Source: Podospora anserina
Taxonomy: Eukaryota
Assembly (NCBI GenBank): GCA_017654855.1
Contig: CM030338.1
Coordinates: 3,782,001 to 3,846,000, forward strand
Length of the DNA: 64,000 bases
Direction of reading: 5' to 3'
This document shows positions 21,824-63,530 of this stretch, in pieces (position 1 is the first letter of the stretch; every line of letters starts with the position of its first letter). Made by a program: the position numbers and the translations under genes. The notes under the pieces were generated by a model that ran no database searches, was not told where the DNA came from, and worked only from the letters and a program-made list of their open reading frames with translations.

Positions 21824-23526
21824 ATGGAGATCACCGGCAGAAATCAGGACGCGACTTGGTCAGACAGCGACCACACAAACTCAATCTCTCCCAGCGAAAC
21901 CGCTTCATTTAAAGATGCCGAAGCTCAGGCTCCCCCTCCTCTGGAGAATGAGAAATACTACGAGGCTGAACATCGTGGCGGTGTCGAAGATCCCAACGAT
22001 TACTATCCCAGCGGCTTCCATCCCGTCCTTCTGGGTGATTTTCTGGGCAAGAGCAGTCGATTCCGGGCCATCAACAAACTAGGAGCCGGCGCACACGGCA
22101 CGGTTTGGCTTTGCAGAGACAGGGCCACGGCCAAATGAAGGGCCGTCAAAATCTTTTCTGCGAAGGTCTCGCGTCCGACAGCCGACATCGACCCCCACGA
22201 GCTTCCAGATCACCGAACCACTGCAATGGCAGACATGGTCATCTCTAAGCACCTTGCCAAATGGTACCAGCCAGACGACCCAGCCCTTAGAAAACATCAC
22301 ATCGGCATCCCACTTGAGTACTTCCGGATCAATGGTCCGAATGGCAAGCATCTCTGCCACGTTTCGCCTTTTATAGTCCCACCATTGAACACGTCCACGA
22401 CCTGTACTCGCCCTGTCAGTCCTTCCTGAAAGCCATCGCCTATCAGATGGTTCATTCCATGGCCTTTCTTCATCAGCACGGCATCTATCATGGCGACTTT
22501 CGACCCGCAAACGGCATGTTTTGCTTGCTTCCTGGAGTCGACGAATGGCCAGAGGAGAAGATGATCAAGCTCTACGGCAAACCGAAAATAGTCCGAGTCC
22601 ACGCAGTTGACGAGGAGGGGGAACGGGACTTTGAAATCGAACCGAACGTCTCTCCTTATCTCATCCAAACGGCCAACTTCGACCTTTCTTCCGGCGCCTG
22701 TTCTTACAATATCGCGGTTATTGACTTTGGCATGGCCTACTTCCTCGACAATCCACCCACCATCTGCGCCACCCCATTCGAGCTGTCCTCCCCCGAAGGG
22801 ATTTTTACCAACGGGCGATTAGGTTGGCCGGCAGACATTTGGTCACTCGCCTGCACTATTCTTTGGACCGTGGCGGGAAGTTACCCATTCGGCGATGAAG
22901 ACTCGGAGTCCACACCATGGCTTGTCGTAGAGGACGTGGAAAGGCTTATGGGACCAATGCCACTGCGCTATCGTCCCCTGCTCACCAGCTGTGTTAGCGC
23001 CGGCAGAGAACTGAGCGAGCGACAGATGAATGACCCGTCCAAATACGCGACTTTCAATCGTCGGGAATCTCACGCCTCCACATACCATGGCGATCCCGAC
23101 GTGATCAGAAACAGAATTTTTGTCAAATATGTGCTTCCCTGGACATCGGAGGAGTATGAGGAGCTCGCCAAACAGGACGAGATCTGGAGGAAAACAGGAC
23201 GTCTTCCCAAGTACATCAAGGCGGCGGGGACTGGAGGTGAAACGATCTGGCGCCCAAGCCTACTACATGATCGCGAGGATGGCGAGGCTCTGTCGGACCT
23301 GTTGCTATCCATCTTCAAATGGGAACCAACTGAGCGTGCGACTACCAAAACCATGCTGGCACATCCCTGGTTTAAGGACCACCGCTCTCGTGGTTCTGAC
23401 AGCCAGTCAGCATCCCAGCAAGGATGGAACTATCTGGCTAGGGGAAAAGGGTTGATGTGGATCTTGGGTGGTTTGCTTGTTGGGGTGGTATCCTTTCGAC
23501 TTCGCAAGAGAGTTTTGGGCAACTAG
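21824..23526 (+). pseudogene. SRPK/Sky1-like protein kinase, disrupted
   Basis: YYPSGFHPVLLGD..KLGAGAHGTVWLCRD, in-frame TGA at 22136-22138 before RAVKI, 1-bp frameshift near 22376, then HGDFRPAN, DFG, DIWSLAC; C-terminal TM segment. Confidence 0.8.
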
Positions 23527-30154: not shown

Positions 30155-31858
30155 CTACAGCGTGATTCCCTCGATCTTCCCTAGAATCCTCTCAACGAAC
30201 TTTATCCCGACCACGATCAGATCCTGTTTGTTATGTGTGACGTCCGAGCTGCCGAACTCATTATTCCCATCATCCAAACAGGTAAGACAATCCACCACGA
30301 TCTCTGTATACAACCACCCCATGCGCTGCGGGAGGGTCTGTTTTGTCAGCAAGACAAGATCCTCTTTGATCCATGACGTGGATCCTGGTAAATGGGCATG
30401 TTCAAAGTCCCGATCGCTCAGATGCTTTCTCAGCTGCAGTGAATATCCAGGAACAGGAGTTGGGATCGATGATGACGAGTTAGTGTGATTGGGGTGATGA
30501 TAGGTTGACGAGGTCGAGCTACTGGTGGACGGGTACCAGACCAAAGACCGCCATAATCCAATCTCAAGGAGGCACACACCCAGGCTATATATATCGTGCT
30601 GCATAACATATCTCTCCAAAATGCAAAGTCCCTGTCGTGCTGGATGCCGGTAAAGGTTCCGATACCAGGCTGTGTCACCGAGGCGGTTCGTCTCCATGTT
30701 GATGCTTCGAAATTGCGAGAAGCCGACAAGAAAAGCCTGGCCCAGTTCCAGAGGTCGCAGAGCAGCAAGAGCTGTTGGGAACAGCAGAATATTGTCCGGA
30801 CGAATATTCTTGTGTACCAAGTCGCAGGTGTGCACGAAGCTGACAGAACGAACAAGCTGTTTTGCCAGTGCGATGACCGAACTGAGACAAACAGGTCTTT
30901 GCTCAAGTAAGAGGCTGCGAAGGGTGGTAGGCGGCTTGAGAGGGTCTGCCTGGGCCGGGGTATGATACACAATCTGGGGACCGAGGGGAAAGGTCTTGTT
31001 GTCGTCAATGATCTCGAGGAGACCCTTGCAGCGTAGAAGGCCAAATATGCTTGGGTCAACGCTCTGGAGTCTCCTGCATAGTTGATAGGCGTCCGATGTA
31101 GTGTTTGTGTTGGTATTTGGGGCAGTACCAATGCCTTCCATGACATACAGACTTTGAGATTTCGGTCGGGCCACAACGTTGACGCTTGAAAAAGGAACGC
31201 TGGTTGCTGTGGTAAAGTCCCATCCTGTCTCATCCATGACGATGCTATTCGCACTTCTGATATCGGTGTTGATCGTGTAATCGATGGCCTTTCTTAACGC
31301 AAACATGTGATCCAGAGGGCTTGCGGGAGATTGGTTGTGTGGTAGCTGTCGGGATCTATCTTGTCCTAACTGCTGCAGTGCCGGGTCCAAGACCTTGCCG
31401 CCGATGAGCATAATCGTATACCACGATGGATCGAACAGACTTTGCCAGCACTGTAACTCCGTCATCAACGCGTCCAACCCTTTTTTGGCCACAGCATATC
31501 TCCACCTGTCAAGCTGAAGCATTCTGGTCAGCACATGTCCCTGTCCAGTACTGGTGGAGGCGACTATCGATGAAGCCGCTGCTTCGAGCTGAGATACCGC
31601 CTGTAGCAGAGTTCCGCGTAGTCTTTGGAGAAGATCAAAATGACATTGTGCAAGTTCTTCAGTCAGATGATCTTTGATCCCGCGGAGGAAAACGAGCTGT
31701 ATCTCTAGTTTCGTCCAAATCGTTTCGAGTAAAAGCACCTTATCACAGAGATCTTTCTTCGCAGTCCTGAAAGCTTGGCAGATGCGCAGGGTCTTGTTGG
31801 CAAGCTTGATGCAAATGTCGACGACGCTGACAACTGCGAGAGCGAGTTCTGCAGACAT
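30155..31858 (-). CDS. HeLo-like (HELL) N-terminal domain plus C-terminal pseudokinase (MLKL-like architecture)
   Basis: MSAELALAVVSVVDICIKLAN amphipathic N-terminal helix; RWRYAV..WQSLFDPSWY; kinase C-lobe VHKNIRPDNILL (HRD to HKN), LVGFSQFR (no DFG), YRHP, HDIYSLGVCLLEIG; intronless. Confidence 0.8.
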   Translation of the reverse strand: MSAELALAVVSVVDICIKLANKTLRICQAFRTAKKDLCDKVLLLETIWTKLEIQLVFLRGIKDHLTEELAQCHFDLLQRLRGTLLQAVSQLEAAASSIVASTSTGQGHVLTRMLQLDRWRYAVAKKGLDALMTELQCWQSLFDPSWYTIMLIGGKVLDPALQQLGQDRSRQLPHNQSPASPLDHMFALRKAIDYTINTDIRSANSIVMDETGWDFTTATSVPFSSVNVVARPKSQSLYVMEGIGTAPNTNTNTTSDAYQLCRRLQSVDPSIFGLLRCKGLLEIIDDNKTFPLGPQIVYHTPAQADPLKPPTTLRSLLLEQRPVCLSSVIALAKQLVRSVSFVHTCDLVHKNIRPDNILLFPTALAALRPLELGQAFLVGFSQFRSINMETNRLGDTAWYRNLYRHPARQGLCILERYVMQHDIYSLGVCLLEIGLWRSLVWYPSTSSSTSSTYHHPNHTNSSSSIPTPVPGYSLQLRKHLSDRDFEHAHLPGSTSWIKEDLVLLTKQTLPQRMGWLYTEIVVDCLTCLDDGNNEFGSSDVTHNKQDLIVVGIKFVERILGKIEGITL

Positions 31859-32497
31859 GGTTCTTGCAGTTCTGTGGACCAGGTGACGCGATTGTGAGGT
31901 TGTTGTAAGGTATGTTGTATCAGATGGTAAGGTGGTGATGAAAAAATGCGGTCTGTGTCGGCTGGTTTTGGCGTGGCGCAGCTCGGGGAAAGGCGTCGTA
32001 GACAATATAATAGACAATGGAGCTATCCCGAAAGATGCTAACCAGAAACACCATGGATGTCTTCAACAGCTCTTGTAATATACCTATATCAAGCACCTCT
32101 AAAGGAGCTGAAAGGGTATGTGGACTGCCCTTGCAGGCATATTACTTGCCACGGTATCTAGGTAGGTAGGTATCTTTAAAGACTTATTAACTACCTTCAA
32201 AAGTCTGTGAACTATCTTCCAAATCCTCATCCAAAGTACAGATTCCATTTTTTTTGTCCACGACGTATTCAGGGGTCGGCTGACTGCTGCCTGGCCGCCG
32301 CTTGCATGTGGCCAAGCAAGCCACAGCGCCATAGCTCGTTTCTGGACGCGCGCTGAAGACAGGGGGCGCGCTGAAAACTAAAAACGCGCTTAAATCCAAG
32401 GCATGAATATGGATGTTAAATACTGCCATCGTTCCTCACTGTCGTATCACTTAGAGCCTGACTTACCCATATATGAGGTAGTTTGGATGCTGTGACC

Positions 32498-34458
32498 ATG
32501 GCTGAAGGTATATCCGAGTTGGTTAATTCCTCTCGGCTGGTGACAGAATTTTACCTCCCGAATTTTGTTGTCCACCATCTTGAAACTGTTAATGAAATCT
32601 GGGATCTGAGAGAAGAAATTGGCTATGGAGGATCTGGCGTGGTGCGAAAAGAGGAACGTCGAGTTCACTCCAGTGGAGAGAAATATCAGGGTCCAATGGT
32701 ACGAGCCGTGAAACAGATGAGAAAGGTTCCTCAAAACCCAGACCAAGGACAGTGGAATTATAGAGCCGAGTTGGAAGCAGTGGTGAAGTTCTCACAGCCA
32801 GAGGTATGCAAGCACGTGTGGTGGAAATGTCCAATGAAAGTTAACATTCAGCAACTTGCTAGTATGACCCTTTCTTTGTGCGCACCTTTGGGTGGTTCGA
32901 AAACCAAGAATCTGTGTTTCTGGCCATGGAATATCTTCCATCGAGTGACCTAGAGAAATTCAGAAGGTCCTCGCCTCCGCTTTCCGAATTTGACACGAGC
33001 CTGATCGTGTGGCAGCTGATTCAAGGTGTGCGACACATGCACGATGCTGGGTTTGCGCATCGAGACTTGAAGCCAGGGGTAAGTGGTGATACTACGTGTT
33101 CTTCATGTCCTCGACCATGTCACATGTGTCCCAATACAGTCAGTCGTTATTGCCTGTAAATACCTAGCTCACATCGACATACCCAGAATATACTCATTGC
33201 CTCAACATCACCGATCTGGCACGTCAAAATCGCCGACTTTGGAATCAGCAAGCAAGCTATGCAGGGTGTAACACGCTTTCACACCATGCGAATCTTCGGG
33301 ACCTTGGGATATATGGCACCCGAGGTATTGGGTTACTATGCCAACAACACCGGAATCAACAATACCACGATTGCATACACTATGTCGGTCGATATTTGGG
33401 CCGTTGGTGTAATTGCAATGACCTTGCTGCTTGGGCGCGATATCTTTCCTTTGCCGGGCGATTACGCCAAATATGTCTTTGGACAACGGGCTCTTGACTT
33501 TGCCCGTGGTCAAGGTGAGGTTTTGACAGACGATTGCCAGGACTTCATCGCGGCCCTTCTTGCAGCGGATCCAATACTTCGACCGACTGCTGCTGCTGCC
33601 CTCGCCCACCCTTGGTTAATGCAGGCCACCGAAGCAACTGAACCTTCTCCAGTAAGAGAGATCCCGGACTCGGAAGCAGACTCAGACGAGGACTCCGCTC
33701 CATCTGATTCACTACAGCCTTCCACAAAGAATCCGTGGGCGACAATCGGCAGTAGAACTTGGCCGAGCAAAGGATCGAAGACATACAGCGACGCGCTCCT
33801 GACGAAGTTCAAGTACCTCTGGCTTGATATTATTCTTCTATCTCCCAAGTTCCATACTATTGAGTTCGAGAAGGTTTGTCTCTCTCCTTGTCCATTGGCC
33901 AGCCAATGGCACGATTTAACGGCGTTCTTCTTCACCTCAGACTCGGTTTTATGTTCTACGCTCCGATAACGCCACAGATATTGAGACAAGCGCTGCTCAG
34001 AGCGTGTGGACTTCTAGTCAGCGTGTCAACAAGATCCTTGACAAAGGATACCGGACATCCGAAGGCCATGTGGTTCTATTCTTCTCCGTGATTGGTAGGT
34101 AAGTAATCGTTTCACATGATTCAAATTACCTATTACTGGTGGAGGTAGGCAAGGTATCTTATAAAGACATGAAGCTGACACACACTGCACCAGTCGGCGA
34201 TTCTGTGGAGTAGCACAGATGACCAGCGCACTGGATTGGGAGAATACTGACCCCCATTGGGTTGAGGATGTCTGGCAGGGACGGTTCACCTTGGCCTGGC
34301 TCAGTCATACAGAGCTCTCATTTGACCTTGTCAACCATGTCCCGGTAAAGGAGACCACACCGGGTTTCAGAGCTATCGCTTGTTACGATGGCACTGAGAT
34401 CTCACCTGGATCCGCATATGAATTATTGAGAGTTTTTTCGGCGGCGGAAAGACGGTGA
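32498..34458 (+). CDS. Ser/Thr protein kinase fused to a C-terminal YTH domain (543 aa, 5 exons)
   Basis: Exons 32498-32803, 32863-33078, 33187-33873, 33941-34098, 34194-34458 splice in frame (1632 nt). Kinase: GYGGSGVV, RAVK, HRDLKPGN, DFG, APE. YTH: RFYVLRS..VWTSS..NKILD..LFFSVIGSRRFCGVAQM..HWVEDVWQGRF..YDGTEI. Confidence 0.85.
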
Positions 34459-34843: not shown

Positions 34844-35570
34844 TTAAATCCACTGATAAACGCTGAGTTTGCTTGAACCACCGCAAGTCTCGGTGGGAGC
34901 ACCAGTACAGGCCAAATCACAATCCGTGTCTTCGAGTTGGACGCTCAAAGCATCTAGCTCATGGCCACAAAAGCATTCAGCCATGTATTGCAGTCCAAAG
35001 AAGACAAATCCAGAGTTGAGACAGTAATCCGCACAGCGTTCGATTGTCATGGCCGCAGGGGAGAAGCCAAAGCCTCCAGCGAGAGCCCGATCGGGGGCGG
35101 GGAGCTCACTAAAGCATCCTTGGTACACTGGGGCGGAGACCTCAGGGTGAGGATAAGGCGTATGTGGAGGGGCCTCCTCAGAACTGCCCCAGAGAGAGAT
35201 GCGGTTTGGACCTCCGCATGTCTGACCGGCGTCTCCAGTGCATTGCATGGAGCAATCTTCCGGGAAGGTAGGGAAGGAACCTGTGTCAAGAGAGTTGCCA
35301 CAGTAGCTGTGAGACTTGTTAGATACCGGATGATACGGAAACGGGGAGAGCTTCTTTGACTTACCACTCGCCTCCATATTCTAGTCCCCAGAGGGTGAAA
35401 TTACGGGTGGGATCGGTGCAGTATGTCTCGCAAGCCTCCACGGTCATCGCCTCGAAATCCGCGGTGCTCGCGCCAGTCAAAGCCCGAGTGGGAATTTCCG
35501 TATAGCAGCCGTAAGAAGTTTGCCCGACGACGGCGGGGACAAGGGCGGCAAGAGCGAGAACGGAGTACAT
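34844..35570 (-). CDS. Secreted double-WSC-domain protein, 1 intron
   Basis: Signal peptide; YGCYTE..MTVEACETYC..GLEYGGECYCGN..C...CGG repeated twice. Confidence 0.88.
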
Positions 35571-55870: not shown

Positions 55871-57748
55871 ACGTATATTATAAGCGAGTCGTACATATAA
55901 GCGAGTCGTACAGTCTCCACCACGACGCGTCCTCCTTACACCTAACATCAATTTTTTCCACAACCCAACATGCCTCCTACTTCAAAGGAAGCCAGGATAC
56001 TTTTAGCCCTTGAGGCTCTCCAAAAGGACGAAAAATTAAGCCTCCGAGCTATAGCTAAGCTTTACAACGTACCACCTATGACTCTCTCTAACCGACGCGC
56101 CGGCCGGCCTACATAACACGATACTACGCCTAGATCGAAAAAGCTTACTTAATCCGAAAAGGAGGCTATTATTTATTATATTATTAAGCTATCTACGCGA
56201 GCTTTTCCACTAAGGTTACGTAGTGTAGAAGATATAGTTAATTAACTATTATACGTACGCAACGCGCCCCCTATTAGTAAACTTTAAATATATAATTTTA
56301 TTAAACGTTAATTATAGTTTTATATATATTTTACGTGTAAATATAATTATTAAAGGGTTAAATACGAAAATCCGAAGGTTATTACCGAATAATTTACGTT
56401 TATACGGAATATTAAAATTAAATATAGTATTATAAATAATAATATTTTTAATTTTAACGAAATTAGGTTTATAATAAATATTATTTTCGTAAATATAATA
56501 ATTATAATCTCGGACGGCCTTAGTAAAGTAAAATTAGTTTAGTTTAATAATCGCGAATAAAAAATAATAATTTAAAAAGTTAATACCTTTAATTAAATTA
56601 TTCCGCCCTTTATTATTTTAACCGTATAATATTATTTTATTAATTAATATATTAAGTATAATTTATTATTTATTTAATATATTATAATTATTAATAATAA
56701 TTAAATTATTAATCCGGTAAATTTAAATTAAATTAAGTATTTCGATTATTATATAACGTTCCGTACTAAAAATAAATATTAATTATTAATCTTTAATAAT
56801 TACAAAAATTATTATTTAATTAAATTCGAATACTATTATTAATAAAATAATATTATTATACTTTATATATTTTTATATTTCTTTTACTTTTTTTAATTAC
56901 TTAATATTAATTATTTTAGGTTATTAAAATAGGTATATAGCCGCTAGATCGAGGGTTTAATATATATATATATTAATTACGTAAGTAAGCTTGAGTTTCT
57001 CTATACTTTCCGTAAAACTTTTTTCGCTTCTATAATGGAGAAAAATATATAAAGTAGCTTTATAATATTAATTTTATACTATACGATTTAAAGAAAGTAC
57101 TTTCTAAATTAAATATAAAGCTTTATACGCTAATACCTTTATTTATAAAACCGGGTACGGTATTTCTTTAAATATTTTAAATATTATAAAATCTTTAAGA
57201 AACTAACTTATATTTAATATTTATTAAAATTTATATTATTAATTATTAAAATAACTTTCCGACTTTAATATTAAATACTATAAATTAATTTACTAAAAGT
57301 ATAATAATTATAATATATTAAGTGGCCCTCTTATAGGTAGAGGTCTCTTCGCTCCGTAAGGCTAATAAGGTACTAAGTAAGCGCCGGAGAGCTAAAAAAA
57401 TACGTGTACGGCTCGGAGGATCACTTACTGTGCAAGATGCACAGGATCTACTAGACCAGAAGGCCGTGGGTGGGGAGGTAGTGGAAGAAATATAGCCGGA
57501 TAGCGGTAGTGCAGGGGGGGCTCGTACGACGGTTCGGTGCTGTGGTGTGTGCGGCAAGCCTGGCCATAACGCGCGCACTTGCTAGGAGGCTGGGGAATCA
57601 TCTGATTCAGCCGTTTCTGATGTAATTGTAGTTGCTTCCTAATGTTGTTGCGGTATAATTGAGGATAGTTGTTGTAGGGTGGTGGAGACTGTACGACTCG
57701 CTTATATGTACGACTCGCTTATATGTACGACTCGCTTATAATATACGT
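55871..57748 (+). mobile_element. Fot1/pogo (Tc1-mariner superfamily) DNA transposon, RIP-inactivated
   Basis: TA target duplication (55869-70 and 57749-50); TIRs acgtatattataagcgagtcgtaca..gtctccaccac; ATG 55970 MPPTSKEARILLALEAL..SLRAIAKLYNVP (HTH); CGVCGKPGHNARTC near 57540; extremely AT/TpA-rich core with many stops. Confidence 0.95.
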
Positions 57749-57830
57749 TAACTATCTTTTAATACCTATTCACCATCTTTAAATACCTACTTACTATCTT
57801 TAGATATTTATTTACTATCTTTAAAGCCAT
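57749..57830. repeat. 21-bp repeat array interrupted by the transposon
   Basis: taactatcttttaatacctatt caccatctttaaatacctactt actatctttagatatttattt; a matching unit lies left of the element at 55845-55870. Confidence 0.7.
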
Positions 57831-59929
57831 CGTAGTTCTCTTTGGGGAAATCTCAAGTATGTTTTAGTGCCACCATCTTGCGAGTAAGAAGTCATCGCCT
57901 TCTGTTAATGATTACCTTAGGTGTTCTAACACGAAAGAACGCCCTTTTAAAGACAAGGTCTAATTTTTGATATACTTCGATAAGTTCCAGTAAATAACGG
58001 ATTCCTTAGCCACTCAACCCATGATATATTGATCACTGTTGGTTTTACGCTAATCTCTTTCACGAAAAGGTGTTGCAAGATCGCCTCCTAAAAGCAACTC
58101 CCTACCTAGGTACCAGGTAAACAAACTCCACGAGCAGCCCGCTCCTCATCACGAGTGGACCGTGACAGTACCTCCGTTGTTGAAAACACTGAGCTTCCTT
58201 CTCTCGATGTTCGGTAGCATGGGATTAATCGTGAAATCTGCAATTCCAGAATGGCTGACAAACCTATCTCCCAGCAAAAGGGAGATCGTCAGAGAAATTA
58301 TTTCATGGCTTACATATCGAAATGGGTTACATTTAAGAGAGTAGGTAGGTAAACATAAGATGAACGGGGACATAGATAGGAGCGCATCTAGACCTATAAC
58401 ATTAGGTAAGGAAGCAGACATCCTGTGGGAGGATGAGTTGCTCCCGGATTCAGTTAGGTTGCTCTTAGGGCTTCCGCCCTGTCGGCCAGGCACAAATTTT
58501 GTTAGTCTAGATATGTCTTCTGCTCCCCGGAGATGTTTTTCCTAGTGCTGCTCAACATCATCACTTTTCTCGCAGTTCTGCTGGCGCTCCACACATCCGC
58601 TACGAATCATGTGTTGCCCCAAAAATAGGAGGTATTTTTTGCGATGCAGGTGGGGGTTTCGAGTGATGGTTCCAACTTGCGGCGAAGAGATCGAGATTCA
58701 ACAGGTTGAAAAGCAGGTTTTGACCAGACCTGTGGGGAGGAGATGGGCCGTGGGAGTTGCGCTGTTCGGTCCAGCTAGACCAAGTACGTCTAGTGGATAG
58801 TGGGTGGTTGAGCGTTCAATCCTTGAAAATATCCGTTGTAAAACCAAGGCAGCAAATTTGCACATGCCCGTATGGATGCACAGCATTTCTCTCCATATCG
58901 GTGGAGTTTGGCCTTGACTCGCAACCCACCCGACCCTTGTAGAAACGAAAGTTCCTCTGTTCGGGTCCGGGAACCATTGGCATCTCGGTTGGGTTGGAGG
59001 TGTGTGTAAGGTAGGTGGCTTCATCGTGCATTGGGGGGTTACCATCAACCAGTGAGCTGTTATCGTCGGTTTTGGTTTCTAAGACGTACTCGGTCCTGCA
59101 ACTCCAGTTCATGTAGACCGACGTAACTGAAGATAGAAATCCATGGTAAGGCGGGTCGTATTCGGGCATTGCTTGCCATGTTTTATGCAGCTCAGAGCTG
59201 TAGAGCTGAAGCTAGCTGATGGGGAGTCGGCATGCAGACCATCTGAGACAGGTATTTCCGCCTGCAGATCCTGCAAATCGCCACTCTTTATGGCCAAGCG
59301 TCTCGGTGTTCGAAATTCTGGTTCCTGATTCTCATCATCAGCAAAGCCGCATCCCGCATCATGCCACCATCAGCATGTCACCTTCAGCATCCGCTATCGG
59401 GTTGGCAGGTGGATTCTCGCAAGGTCCCCCACCATTTTTGGCACCGATTTTGTGGCGGGCGAGTCGCCGCGGGCCGTCCAGGAGTGCAGTAGCTCAACCG
59501 CCAAGCATCTTGACCATCTTGATAGCTGTCAGATGCTGCGCAATCCTGGTATTAGCGTGGGGCTCCCGTGGGATCGTCACAGGCATTACTCTGTATTTGG
59601 TCTGGTGCCTGATAGTGATAGTTCTCGCTGGCATGATCCCTCACCCGCTCCCAGACTACCATTGGGTCGAAGATCCGGCATCGTTCCCCTATAGGCGATC
59701 CAAGTTTCCCTCAGACCCCACGACGACTAGGTAACTTAGGTAGGCAGGTAGCGAGAGGAGTAGACACTGAAAGATGCAGCGTGACGTGAGGAGACGGGCA
59801 TTTCAAATTCCCGGGAGCCCATCTTCATAAAGTAGCCGTTCTCCTTCAGTCTCGGATGGCTAGAGGTGTGCTGCAGGCTGCCAGTCCAGTGTGTGTTGTT
59901 GTGCAACGATCATCCGCAGAATCCATACC

Positions 59930-62180: not shown

Positions 62181-63530
62181 CTAAATTGTTAATTTTGCTA
62201 TGAGATGAGCACCCACGAATTCTAGTAGTTCGCGCACCCCAAATCCAGTCTCTGGATCACAAAAAAAGTAGCTTGTGGCTCCAATGTCCTTTGTAATGCA
62301 GAGAGGGACGAAGTCATCCGAGTCTTGCGGTTCTTGGAATGGACCGGCGGCTGCGTCTTCATCTGGATTCTTCAGTCCAACCAACACAAGGGGTACCTCC
62401 GGACAATAGCTTTTAATTTCCCATGTCCACTTTCCCAGGATCGCGTCTTTAGCGGCGGTAGGATTCTCGGCGCGGAAGCACAAAAGAACTACGTCAGCCC
62501 CGTTGTATGAGAAAGGTCTCAGTTTGTCGTAGTCTTCTTGTCCTGACGTGTCTTTGAGCTCAAGTTGAAGGTCGACTCCGTCTACTTGGCAACCGATGAC
62601 GCAACTATCAAAGACTGTTGGGCTGTATGGTCCTGGAAGTCTGTTATATGCGAAAGCGCTGAGAAGGCGTGTTTTGCCCGCATTTCGGTCCCCTACAACC
62701 ACACACTTGAACCTCGTGCGAATCGGGGGCTCTTTGAGTGGAGAGGCGGGTTGGAAAGCCTGATCTTGATTGAAGGTCAAAGTTTCGTCGATGGTTGACA
62801 CAGAAGTCTCGACGTCGTGTCCTTTCCGGATGCTAGCGGAGCGGATCGAGTTGAGACGCAGACTGACGGTATCAGAGATGAGATCTTCGTCGTTTTGTGA
62901 GGCAAGAGCAATCTCTTCCAGTGTCTCTAGATCGTCAATTTCGGATATCTCAACCTCAACGATATGGCGTTGTTTGAGAGCGATATCTCCGAAGCAGCGA
63001 GTCATGGCTTCAAGATCGTCGTTCAAATCTTTAAGATGCTGGATCAGTTGTGCAAAATGTTCCCTGTCCGAAATAGCCCACGAAGCGGTATTCCAAAGTC
63101 GGGAGGCTCTTTGTTGTTTCTTCCAGAAGAAAAAAGGGCGTCTTGTACCCAGGGAGCTTGAACCCAACAATTGTAGGGCTGGTGCACGATTGCTACCACG
63201 CTGCTTTGGTGGCACCAGCCCATATCGATTTCTGAGAAGCGACTCATCCTGGAATAGGTCCTTGATACACTCCAGAGTGGCTGTTACTCTTGATCGTAGC
63301 ACGGGATCATCAAGTCGTTTGTCGTACTGCTCCATGCCCATCCCCGATAAGCCACAAGCCTTGCCCCAAGAGAGTAATCGTAGCTCTTGGTTGTCGAATT
63401 TCGTCTCGAGCAGCTTAAAGTCCCTCTCCAATCGAGCTCCCCGCCGAACCAACTGATAACACCCGGCGCATGTTGTGAATAGGCCTGCCAGCCCTATCAC
63501 ACCAATAGCGAGGCCGGCCGTTTCGGCCAT
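62181..63530 (-). CDS. HeLo (HET-S/LopB) domain fused to an atypical Rho-like GTPase domain
   Basis: MAETAGLAIGVIGLAGLFTTC..DFKLLETKFDNQELRLLSWGKACGL..WAISDREHFAQLIQHLKDLNDDL; then KCVVVGDRNAGKT, YSPTVFD, DTSGQEDYDKLRPFSY; a possible terminal intron could extend the CDS to 62037. Confidence 0.88.
   Translation of the reverse strand: MAETAGLAIGVIGLAGLFTTCAGCYQLVRRGARLERDFKLLETKFDNQELRLLSWGKACGLSGMGMEQYDKRLDDPVLRSRVTATLECIKDLFQDESLLRNRYGLVPPKQRGSNRAPALQLLGSSSLGTRRPFFFWKKQQRASRLWNTASWAISDREHFAQLIQHLKDLNDDLEAMTRCFGDIALKQRHIVEVEISEIDDLETLEEIALASQNDEDLISDTVSLRLNSIRSASIRKGHDVETSVSTIDETLTFNQDQAFQPASPLKEPPIRTRFKCVVVGDRNAGKTRLLSAFAYNRLPGPYSPTVFDSCVIGCQVDGVDLQLELKDTSGQEDYDKLRPFSYNGADVVLLCFRAENPTAAKDAILGKWTWEIKSYCPEVPLVLVGLKNPDEDAAAGPFQEPQDSDDFVPLCITKDIGATSYFFCDPETGFGVRELLEFVGAHLIAKLTI

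Follow-up and report, generated by a model that had tools for sequence, protein, structure and literature searches.

Fungal HeLo executors are switched by amyloid templating, and gasdermins are switched by proteolysis. Animal necroptosis works through a phosphorylation switch, and to our knowledge no such switch has so far been demonstrated in fungi. A 2025 review stated that the extent to which necroptosis is conserved in fungi needs clarifying. The RIPK3–MLKL mechanism is laid out in passages of PMC13519141, and excerpts of PMC6013482 give the relevant MLKL residues as VAIK230, HGK331, GFE351 and T357/S358 and report that MLKL binds ATP. For fungi, the Fig. 6 legend of PMC12881547 notes that HELL domains are in some cases joined to kinase or pseudokinase domains, as in MLKL, and section 20 of the same paper describes gasdermin-activating proteases carrying WD40, ANK and TPR tails. 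The sections of PMC9262711 dealing with het-Vb describe an MLKL/HeLo protein with a TUDOR domain, encoded at a different locus from the one reported here.

The window analysed in this study is a 64,000-nt stretch of the Podospora anserina genome (GCA_017654855.1, contig CM030338.1, positions 3,782,001 to 3,846,000). It contains Pa_7_990, which the initial annotation described as encoding a fungal protein with MLKL-type pseudokinase degeneration, probably a switchable pore-former rather than an enzyme. This gene lies head-to-head with Pa_7_980, which encodes a kinase with a YTH tail (Table 1), and the retention of such a head-to-head pair across many fungi suggests a kinase-triggered cell-death switch. 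The layout of a HeLo-like head joined to a pseudokinase is already known from the legend in PMC12881547; the sensor-kinase partner, the predicted phosphosite and the YTH tail go beyond what that legend contains. Among the mainly open-access papers searched, none dealt with the gene pair, its locus names or a kinase–YTH fusion, and no such kinase/pseudokinase pair appears in the accessible portions of PMC9815663, PMC10197012, PMC5485727, PMC11476962, PMC13449251 and PMC13475620.

Table 1. Features of the Pa_7_990/Pa_7_980 locus, in positions of the 64,000-nt window.
Feature	Position	Strand	Basis
Pa_7_990, helical-head pseudokinase gene, intronless, 567 aa	30155..31858	-	ORF; PODANS_7_990 match; putative-RNA contig
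Four long helices (residues 3-28, 35-64, 67-103, 109-152), candidate HeLo/4HB-like executor domain	31403..31858	-	AlphaFold model; ESM atlas
First helix (residues 1-19), hydrophobic and a candidate for membrane insertion	31802..31858	-	Hydropathy
Pair of short linker helices (157-171, 181-193) in a position resembling that of the MLKL brace	31280..31390	-	Model secondary structure
Pseudokinase domain, about residues 202-567	30158..31255	-	
Strand beta-3, ATP-binding Lys absent; family has Asp/Glu at position 241	31133..31150	-	Alignment and AlphaFold model
Catalytic loop HKNIRPDN; Asn replaces the catalytic Asp; RD-Arg position held by Lys350	30791..30814	-	Family alignment
GFSQFR instead of DFG; Arg384 at DFG+3	30707..30724	-	Family alignment
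Thr390, near-invariant activation-loop residue, predicted phosphosite	30689..30691	-	Family alignment
Divergent intergenic region between start codons, 639 bp	31859..32497	.	Sequence
Pa_7_980, Ser/Thr kinase-YTH fusion, 543 aa, five exons	32498..34458	+	Open spliced frame; spliced contigs
Exons of Pa_7_980	32498-32803, 32863-33078, 33187-33873, 33941-34098, 34194-34458	+	
YTH domain of partner kinase, two exons	33941..34455	+	Pfam PF04146 above cut-off in both exons

The Pa_7_990 product differs from the public PODANS_7_990 by one residue, and a contig from a putative RNA run covers 30170-31920 without a joint. No sequencing run is recorded as RNA; the RNA nature of two runs, X1 and X2, was argued from their spliced joints, and their read depth is unable to rank genes. 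A pseudogene or decay reading of Pa_7_990 was rejected on the basis of the open frame, the family-wide motifs and the putative-RNA contigs. At 30316, the window has A and all four runs compared have G, and residue 515 is Trp in the window and Arg in all ten other Podospora sequences; the A at 30316, and with it Trp515, is probably an assembly error or a private variant. Members of the Podospora complex show 97-99% conservation of this protein (13-18 differences), with no sign of the hypervariability seen in many incompatibility genes. This low variation argues against a fast-evolving incompatibility gene, though not against a role in defence.

Of 7998 candidates scored in searches for the family, 1312 proteins passed E<=0.001, and clustering at 50% gave 3077 representatives. 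All named matches come from filamentous ascomycetes, and homologues were auto-named 'het-s domain protein' or 'HET-s/LopB domain protein'. The positions discussed below were compared in a family alignment of 262 proteins, 11 of which are near-identical Podospora rows.

A passage of PMC13519141 defines a pseudokinase at the sequence level by the loss of the VAIK Lys, the HRD Asp or the DFG Asp. In Pa_7_990 all three catalytic positions are lost, together with the G-loop, and the kinase fold is present, supporting its designation as a pseudokinase by sequence. The initial annotation had pointed out that HKNIRPDNILL contains no catalytic Asp, that LVGFSQFR occupies the DFG position and that neither a G-loop nor a VAIK lysine is evident, and closer analysis bore out all of these observations. 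In an alignment with StkP, the catalytic Asp position within the first motif (residues 349-359) is taken by Asn351, a position held by Asn in 216 of the 262 aligned proteins and by Asp in 4, and the DFG Asp position within the second motif (residues 377-384) is taken by Gly379, which is kept in 259. In the AlphaFold model (mean pLDDT 83, pTM 0.86), the strand preceding helix C (237-242, LYVMEG) has no Lys and no GxGxxG before it; position 241 is Asp or Glu in 233 of the 262 proteins, and strands 2-3 hold no conserved replacement Lys in the alignment. As judged from these counts, the catalytic-site changes are family-wide and not decay.

Two basic residues are retained around the lost active site, namely Lys350 (256/262 family proteins, and all 74 members that are paired with a kinase) and Arg384 (259/262), which we take from kinase anatomy to be the RD arginine position and DFG+3, respectively. 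In RD kinases, these two basic residues hold the activation-loop phosphate. Residue 390, which aligns with the StkP activation-loop site, is Thr or Ser in 258 of the 262 family proteins (gap in 3) and in 73 of the 74 paired members (gap in one), and a phospho-switch at Thr390 is considered probable. Of the SINMET segment, which had been put forward at the outset for phosphomimetic substitution, Thr390 alone is conserved; Ser385 was rejected as a phosphosite because it is present in only 69 of the 262 proteins. Because Thr390 and the putative pocket formed by Lys350 and Arg384 are kept in a dead enzyme, the protein would resemble a phosphorylation-controlled switch.

The model supports an MLKL-like layout of four long helices, two short linker helices and a kinase fold, in which the linker helices may resemble the MLKL brace. 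A hydrophobic N-terminal helix of the kind found in membrane-inserting HeLo-like domains had been noted in the initial annotation, and its hydrophobicity was confirmed by a mean hydropathy of 1.82 over the first 19 residues, compared with 1.81 for the best N-terminal window of a protein of this genome which we take to be HET-S-type; across 93 family members whose start looks complete, the median is 1.54. An ESM atlas search restricted to named clusters, with kinase families filtered out, placed residues 1-195 closest to HeLo clusters (0.94, 179/256 features in common), and among the ESM clusters around the whole protein, PF14479 occurs on 11-35% of members. Three of eight distant paralogs in this genome match PF14479 above the cut-off, ahead of the related domain. 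However, no HeLo-superfamily Pfam match (PF14479, PF17111, PF17107, PF22215) was obtained in Pa_7_990 or in 162 members scanned; for HeLo, HELL and MLKL_N these scans gave 0/70 members at E<=0.1 and 0/92 (of 141 further representatives) at E<=0.01. Compared with five HeLo sequences, the head profile matched weakly at P 0.043, against 0.34 for a reversed control; with only the HET-S-type sequence the value was P 0.099, and both matches were confined to helix 4. The 16 matches of the head profile to PDB sequences at E<=10 were at chance level and included no HeLo or MLKL chain. Whole-model fold searches returned kinases over residues 198-567 and listed no HeLo/4HB protein, but the head region was left uncovered by these matches, so the result is not evidence of absence. 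Modelled alone and without an alignment, the head reached a pLDDT of 53. Weighing the embedding, the hydropathy and the Pfam matches of the paralogs against the negative or weak HMM and profile tests, the candidate head likely belongs to the HeLo/4HB superfamily.

The neighbouring gene Pa_7_980 was identified as PODANS_7_980 and starts about 640 bp from Pa_7_990; repeats in the region between them are only short and at chance level. The kinase motifs are intact (G-loop, AVK, HRDLKPGN, DFG and APE), as they are in 120-124 of 125 kinase homologues. All four GT-AG joints (59, 108, 67 and 95 nt) were observed in X1 and three of them in X2, both putative RNA, and none in X7, which covers the gene partially, or in the full-cover control run X15. 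The public model of PODANS_7_980 uses different splice sites at introns 1 and 3, whereby the start of the YTH domain is lost; introns 32804-32862 (59 nt) and 33874-33940 (67 nt) are backed by the putative-RNA contigs. The YTH domain is closest to YTHDF1-3 chains, and its three cage Trp residues align with those of YTHDF1/2. A YTH domain was found in 53 of the 125 kinase homologues, with Trp at the three cage positions in 51, 52 and 49 of the 53. The RHIM core motif is absent from both Pa_7_990 and Pa_7_980. Elsewhere in the window, a WSC-domain gene (34844-35377, minus strand) lies directly downstream of Pa_7_980 and shows very high contig depth in two runs, a further kinase gene with a Pfam Pkinase match, presumably SRPK-like by its motifs, lies 6.6 kb away (21824-23526, plus strand), and a sharp AT-rich dip at 56001-58000 (GC 22-35%) is probably a RIP-mutated repeat.

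The conservation of the pair was assessed in metagenomic loci, of which the best 80 of 201 were reduced to 59 groups at 90% identity; 38 groups had at least 1.5 kb of upstream sequence. With a kinase-bearing member taken as the representative whenever the group had one, a kinase lies within 2.8 kb in 31 of the 38 non-redundant loci and is lacking in seven. Of the paired loci, 28 are head-to-head, two have the kinase upstream on the same strand and one has it downstream; a kinase was also visible in three of the 21 short-flank groups left out. Given 69 kinase matches in the 36 Mb of this genome, the chance of a kinase being adjacent is estimated at about 2-3%. A profile search of the unpaired loci revealed no hidden kinase, and the six of them in which the loop could be read retain a Thr at or near the 390 place. 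These seven loci have no shared alternative neighbour (one HET domain, one JmjC, others unrelated); the unpaired family member at L055:5270-7174 adjoins a HET-domain gene. The loci L017 and L022 have pseudokinase genes that are 95% alike, but the upstream kinase is present only in L022, where a second kinase follows the first; L017, with a flank of 8 kb, is rearranged about 350 bp upstream of the pseudokinase gene. This difference is possibly an idiomorph-like presence/absence polymorphism.

Pairing was also seen among named matches: 41 of 120 listed kinases were inferred by eye to share a contig with one of 120 listed pseudokinase homologues, and six named genomes outside Podospora, among the matches listed, have consecutive locus tags for the two genes. 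Trees were built from 74 pairs (Pa_7_980/990, 40 inferred same-contig pairs and 33 pairs observed in loci, after omission of two loci in which the kinase is a short piece). The 74 partner kinases group in one clade (SH-aLRT 97.4) apart from 22 other kinases of this genome, in an alignment built on the partner profile, which favours a single-clade outcome. The kinase and pseudokinase trees have 27 of 35 strong splits in common and no strong conflicts, and their pairwise distances correlate with r 0.89. Linkage alone predicts such agreement, suggesting that the pair was inherited and duplicated as a unit, without implying contact between the proteins. Overall, we regard it as very probable that the two genes form a functional pair.

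Within this genome, a close paralog on contig C2 is also head-to-head with a kinase (C2:58442-62800), whose tail of about 366 aa is rich in Ala, Ser and Pro and has no Pfam match. None of the eight distant paralogs has a kinase neighbour. At seven loci of this genome (L098 and L100-L105), such distant paralogs carry a HeLo or unknown head, and several show weak matches to DUF7580 (PF24476), which appears to be the C-lobe of these pseudokinases. A separate 449-aa ORF in the window (62181-63530, minus strand) fuses a HeLo domain to a Ras/Rho-type small GTPase, with both Pfam families above the cut-off.

The tails of the partner kinases are diverse. In 29 of 34 metagenomic partners, the tails contain WD40 (9), YTH (3), ANK (1), TPR (1), KA1 (1), small-GTPase pieces (1), C2/WW (1) or no family (12), and the small-GTPase pieces and C2/WW may be separate genes. 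The twelve tails without a family gave no Pfam match at E<=0.001, and a rescan of 11 at E<=0.05 likewise brought up nothing meaningful. Kinase-WD40 and kinase-TPR fusions were confirmed in annotated members of the kinase family, which also include kinases with SH3, RhoGAP and alpha-kinase tails; these are family members, and pairing to a pseudokinase is not implied. A single clade (98.5) holds all 37 kinases of the YTH group. The C-terminal tail of the partner is interchangeable, and in Pa_7_980 it is a YTH domain.

Anatomy and pairing are what was observed, and from them we infer a course of events in which a conserved two-gene sensor-kinase module resembling RIPK3–MLKL has Pa_7_990 as its executor half, a reading that we favour slightly. 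The tail of the kinase would sense a ligand or a disturbance and turn the kinase on, and the Pa_7_980 kinase would then phosphorylate Thr390. Lys350 and Arg384, as a retained RD-type pocket, would hold the phosphate and thereby rearrange the activation loop, and the change would be relayed through the linker helices to free the head. The hydrophobic first helix of the freed head would attack the membrane, and the hyphal compartment would die as a defence response; a membrane-killing output of the candidate head is considered moderately probable. The 'switchable pore-former' of the initial annotation thus becomes likelier and more specific, because an active kinase is conserved head-to-head with the gene and the activation-loop Thr is near-invariant. 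The seven unpaired loci among the 38, the Thr retained at the six of them that could be read, and the eight of eight unpaired distant paralogs were counted against the executor-module reading. A doubtful extension of this reading is an m6A-sensing two-gene necroptosis circuit, in which the YTH cage would bind m6A RNA, the clustered kinases would become active, and phosphorylation of Thr390 would unleash the MLKL-like executor. The m6A-bearing RNA may be non-self, as suggested by the only MT-A70 match found in the genome (C7:1391444-1391968), which is METTL4-like by PDB matches, and by the lack of a METTL3/14 match, both from an exon-wise search that can miss split genes. The genome has two other YTH genes.

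The same pairing and co-divergence are equally compatible with a signalling pair without a pore, in which Pa_7_990 would be an allosteric regulator, inhibitor or scaffold in the style of KSR, STRAD or JAK-JH2 and the head a coiled-coil interaction module. The failed HMM tests for HeLo and the low variation within the genus point in this direction. However, the first helix is as hydrophobic as the HET-S-type one, the embedding of the head is nearest to HeLo, distant paralogs have Pfam HeLo matches, and the partner kinases carry immune-type repeat tails, so that we consider such a pair unlikely.

The logic could also be reversed, as in a guard or toxin-antidote system: the kinase would keep Pa_7_990 off by constant phosphorylation or binding, and death would follow when the effector of an antagonist hits the kinase or its decoy YTH tail, or when the kinase is lost on fusion with a strain lacking it. 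The varied tails do resemble integrated decoys (KA1, SH3, RhoGAP, GTPase pieces), L017 and L022 differ in kinase presence despite their 95% likeness, and part of PMC13519141 reports that RIPK3 also restrains dormant MLKL. Such an arrangement is nevertheless improbable. At the kinase-less loci the pseudokinase frame stays open, a situation that would be lethal without cover from an unlinked kinase, and the normal role of an RD-type pocket is to stabilise an active-like state. Polar residues around the pseudo-active site are very strongly conserved, which could alternatively reflect a repurposed active site made of the HKN-x-RP, GF-xx-R and YRHPxRQG residues, as in SelO, SidJ and POMK, precedents for which are found in sections of PMC13519141. 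However, with all three catalytic positions and the G-loop gone and no substitute Lys in strands 2-3, a non-canonical enzyme is very improbable, and a phosphate pocket and structural roles would account for the conserved residues.

If the executor-module reading is correct, the locus offers the missing upstream kinase, one predicted phosphosite and a candidate ligand class, in a tractable fungus that serves as the model for cell-death genetics in fungi. Its interchangeable kinase tails would provide a new catalogue of what fungal immune sensors watch, and the m6A circuit, if true, would give fungi an equivalent of nucleic-acid-triggered necroptosis that needs no RHIM amyloid.

Several known systems share parts of this arrangement. 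The YTH tail has the profile and the three cage Trp residues of the m6A readers YTHDF1-3 and Pho92, but it is fused to a kinase, and RNA binding is a prediction. The het-Q-type gasdermin-protease clusters likewise combine an executor with an enzyme fused to WD40, ANK or TPR; clustering of gasdermin and protease exceeds 80% according to section 20 of PMC12881547, compared with 31/38 for the pair described here. These clusters use a cleavage switch and a beta-barrel pore, in contrast to the proposed phosphorylation switch and helical head of the Pa_7_990 module. The het-S/nwd2 and HELLP amyloid clusters also place a HeLo-type executor beside its activator, whereas the regulatory part of the Pa_7_990 pair is a pseudokinase, with no prion-forming domain and no NLR. 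The HET-S-type locus of this genome, to which we presume the names het-S/nwd2 apply, is also head-to-head. The fungal HELL/HeLo proteins with kinase or pseudokinase domains in PMC12881547 have the same layout as Pa_7_990, and the legend that presents them names no activating kinase, gene pair or phosphosite. In wheat R3NLR/R3AK and plant MLKLs, as described in part of bioRxiv 10.64898/2026.08.07.743466, a 4HB-kinase executor is also paired with a sensor, which is an NLR there and a kinase fusion here.

The closest comparison is with animal MLKL and RIPK3. Both systems have, according to the model, a helical head, two linker helices and a pseudokinase in the same order, and both lack the catalytic Asp, have an activation-loop Thr/Ser as the candidate switch and come with a dedicated upstream kinase, putative in the fungal pair. 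The parallel with MLKL drawn at the outset holds for the DFG motif, where GF at the DF positions of MLKL GFE351 recurs in the Pa_7_990 family and Glu is the commonest next residue (87/262), but it does not extend to the VAIK Lys (K230), which MLKL keeps, binding ATP, and the family has lost. The candidate site lies 9 residues past GFx in Pa_7_990, compared with 6-7 in human MLKL. RIPK3 bears a RHIM, whereas Pa_7_980 has no RHIM-type motif, carries a fused tail and is encoded next door. For the kinase domain of Pa_7_990, MLKL is not the best match by fold or by sequence, so orthology with MLKL is putative. Pa_7_990 most plausibly works like MLKL, yet it is not to be filed as MLKL.
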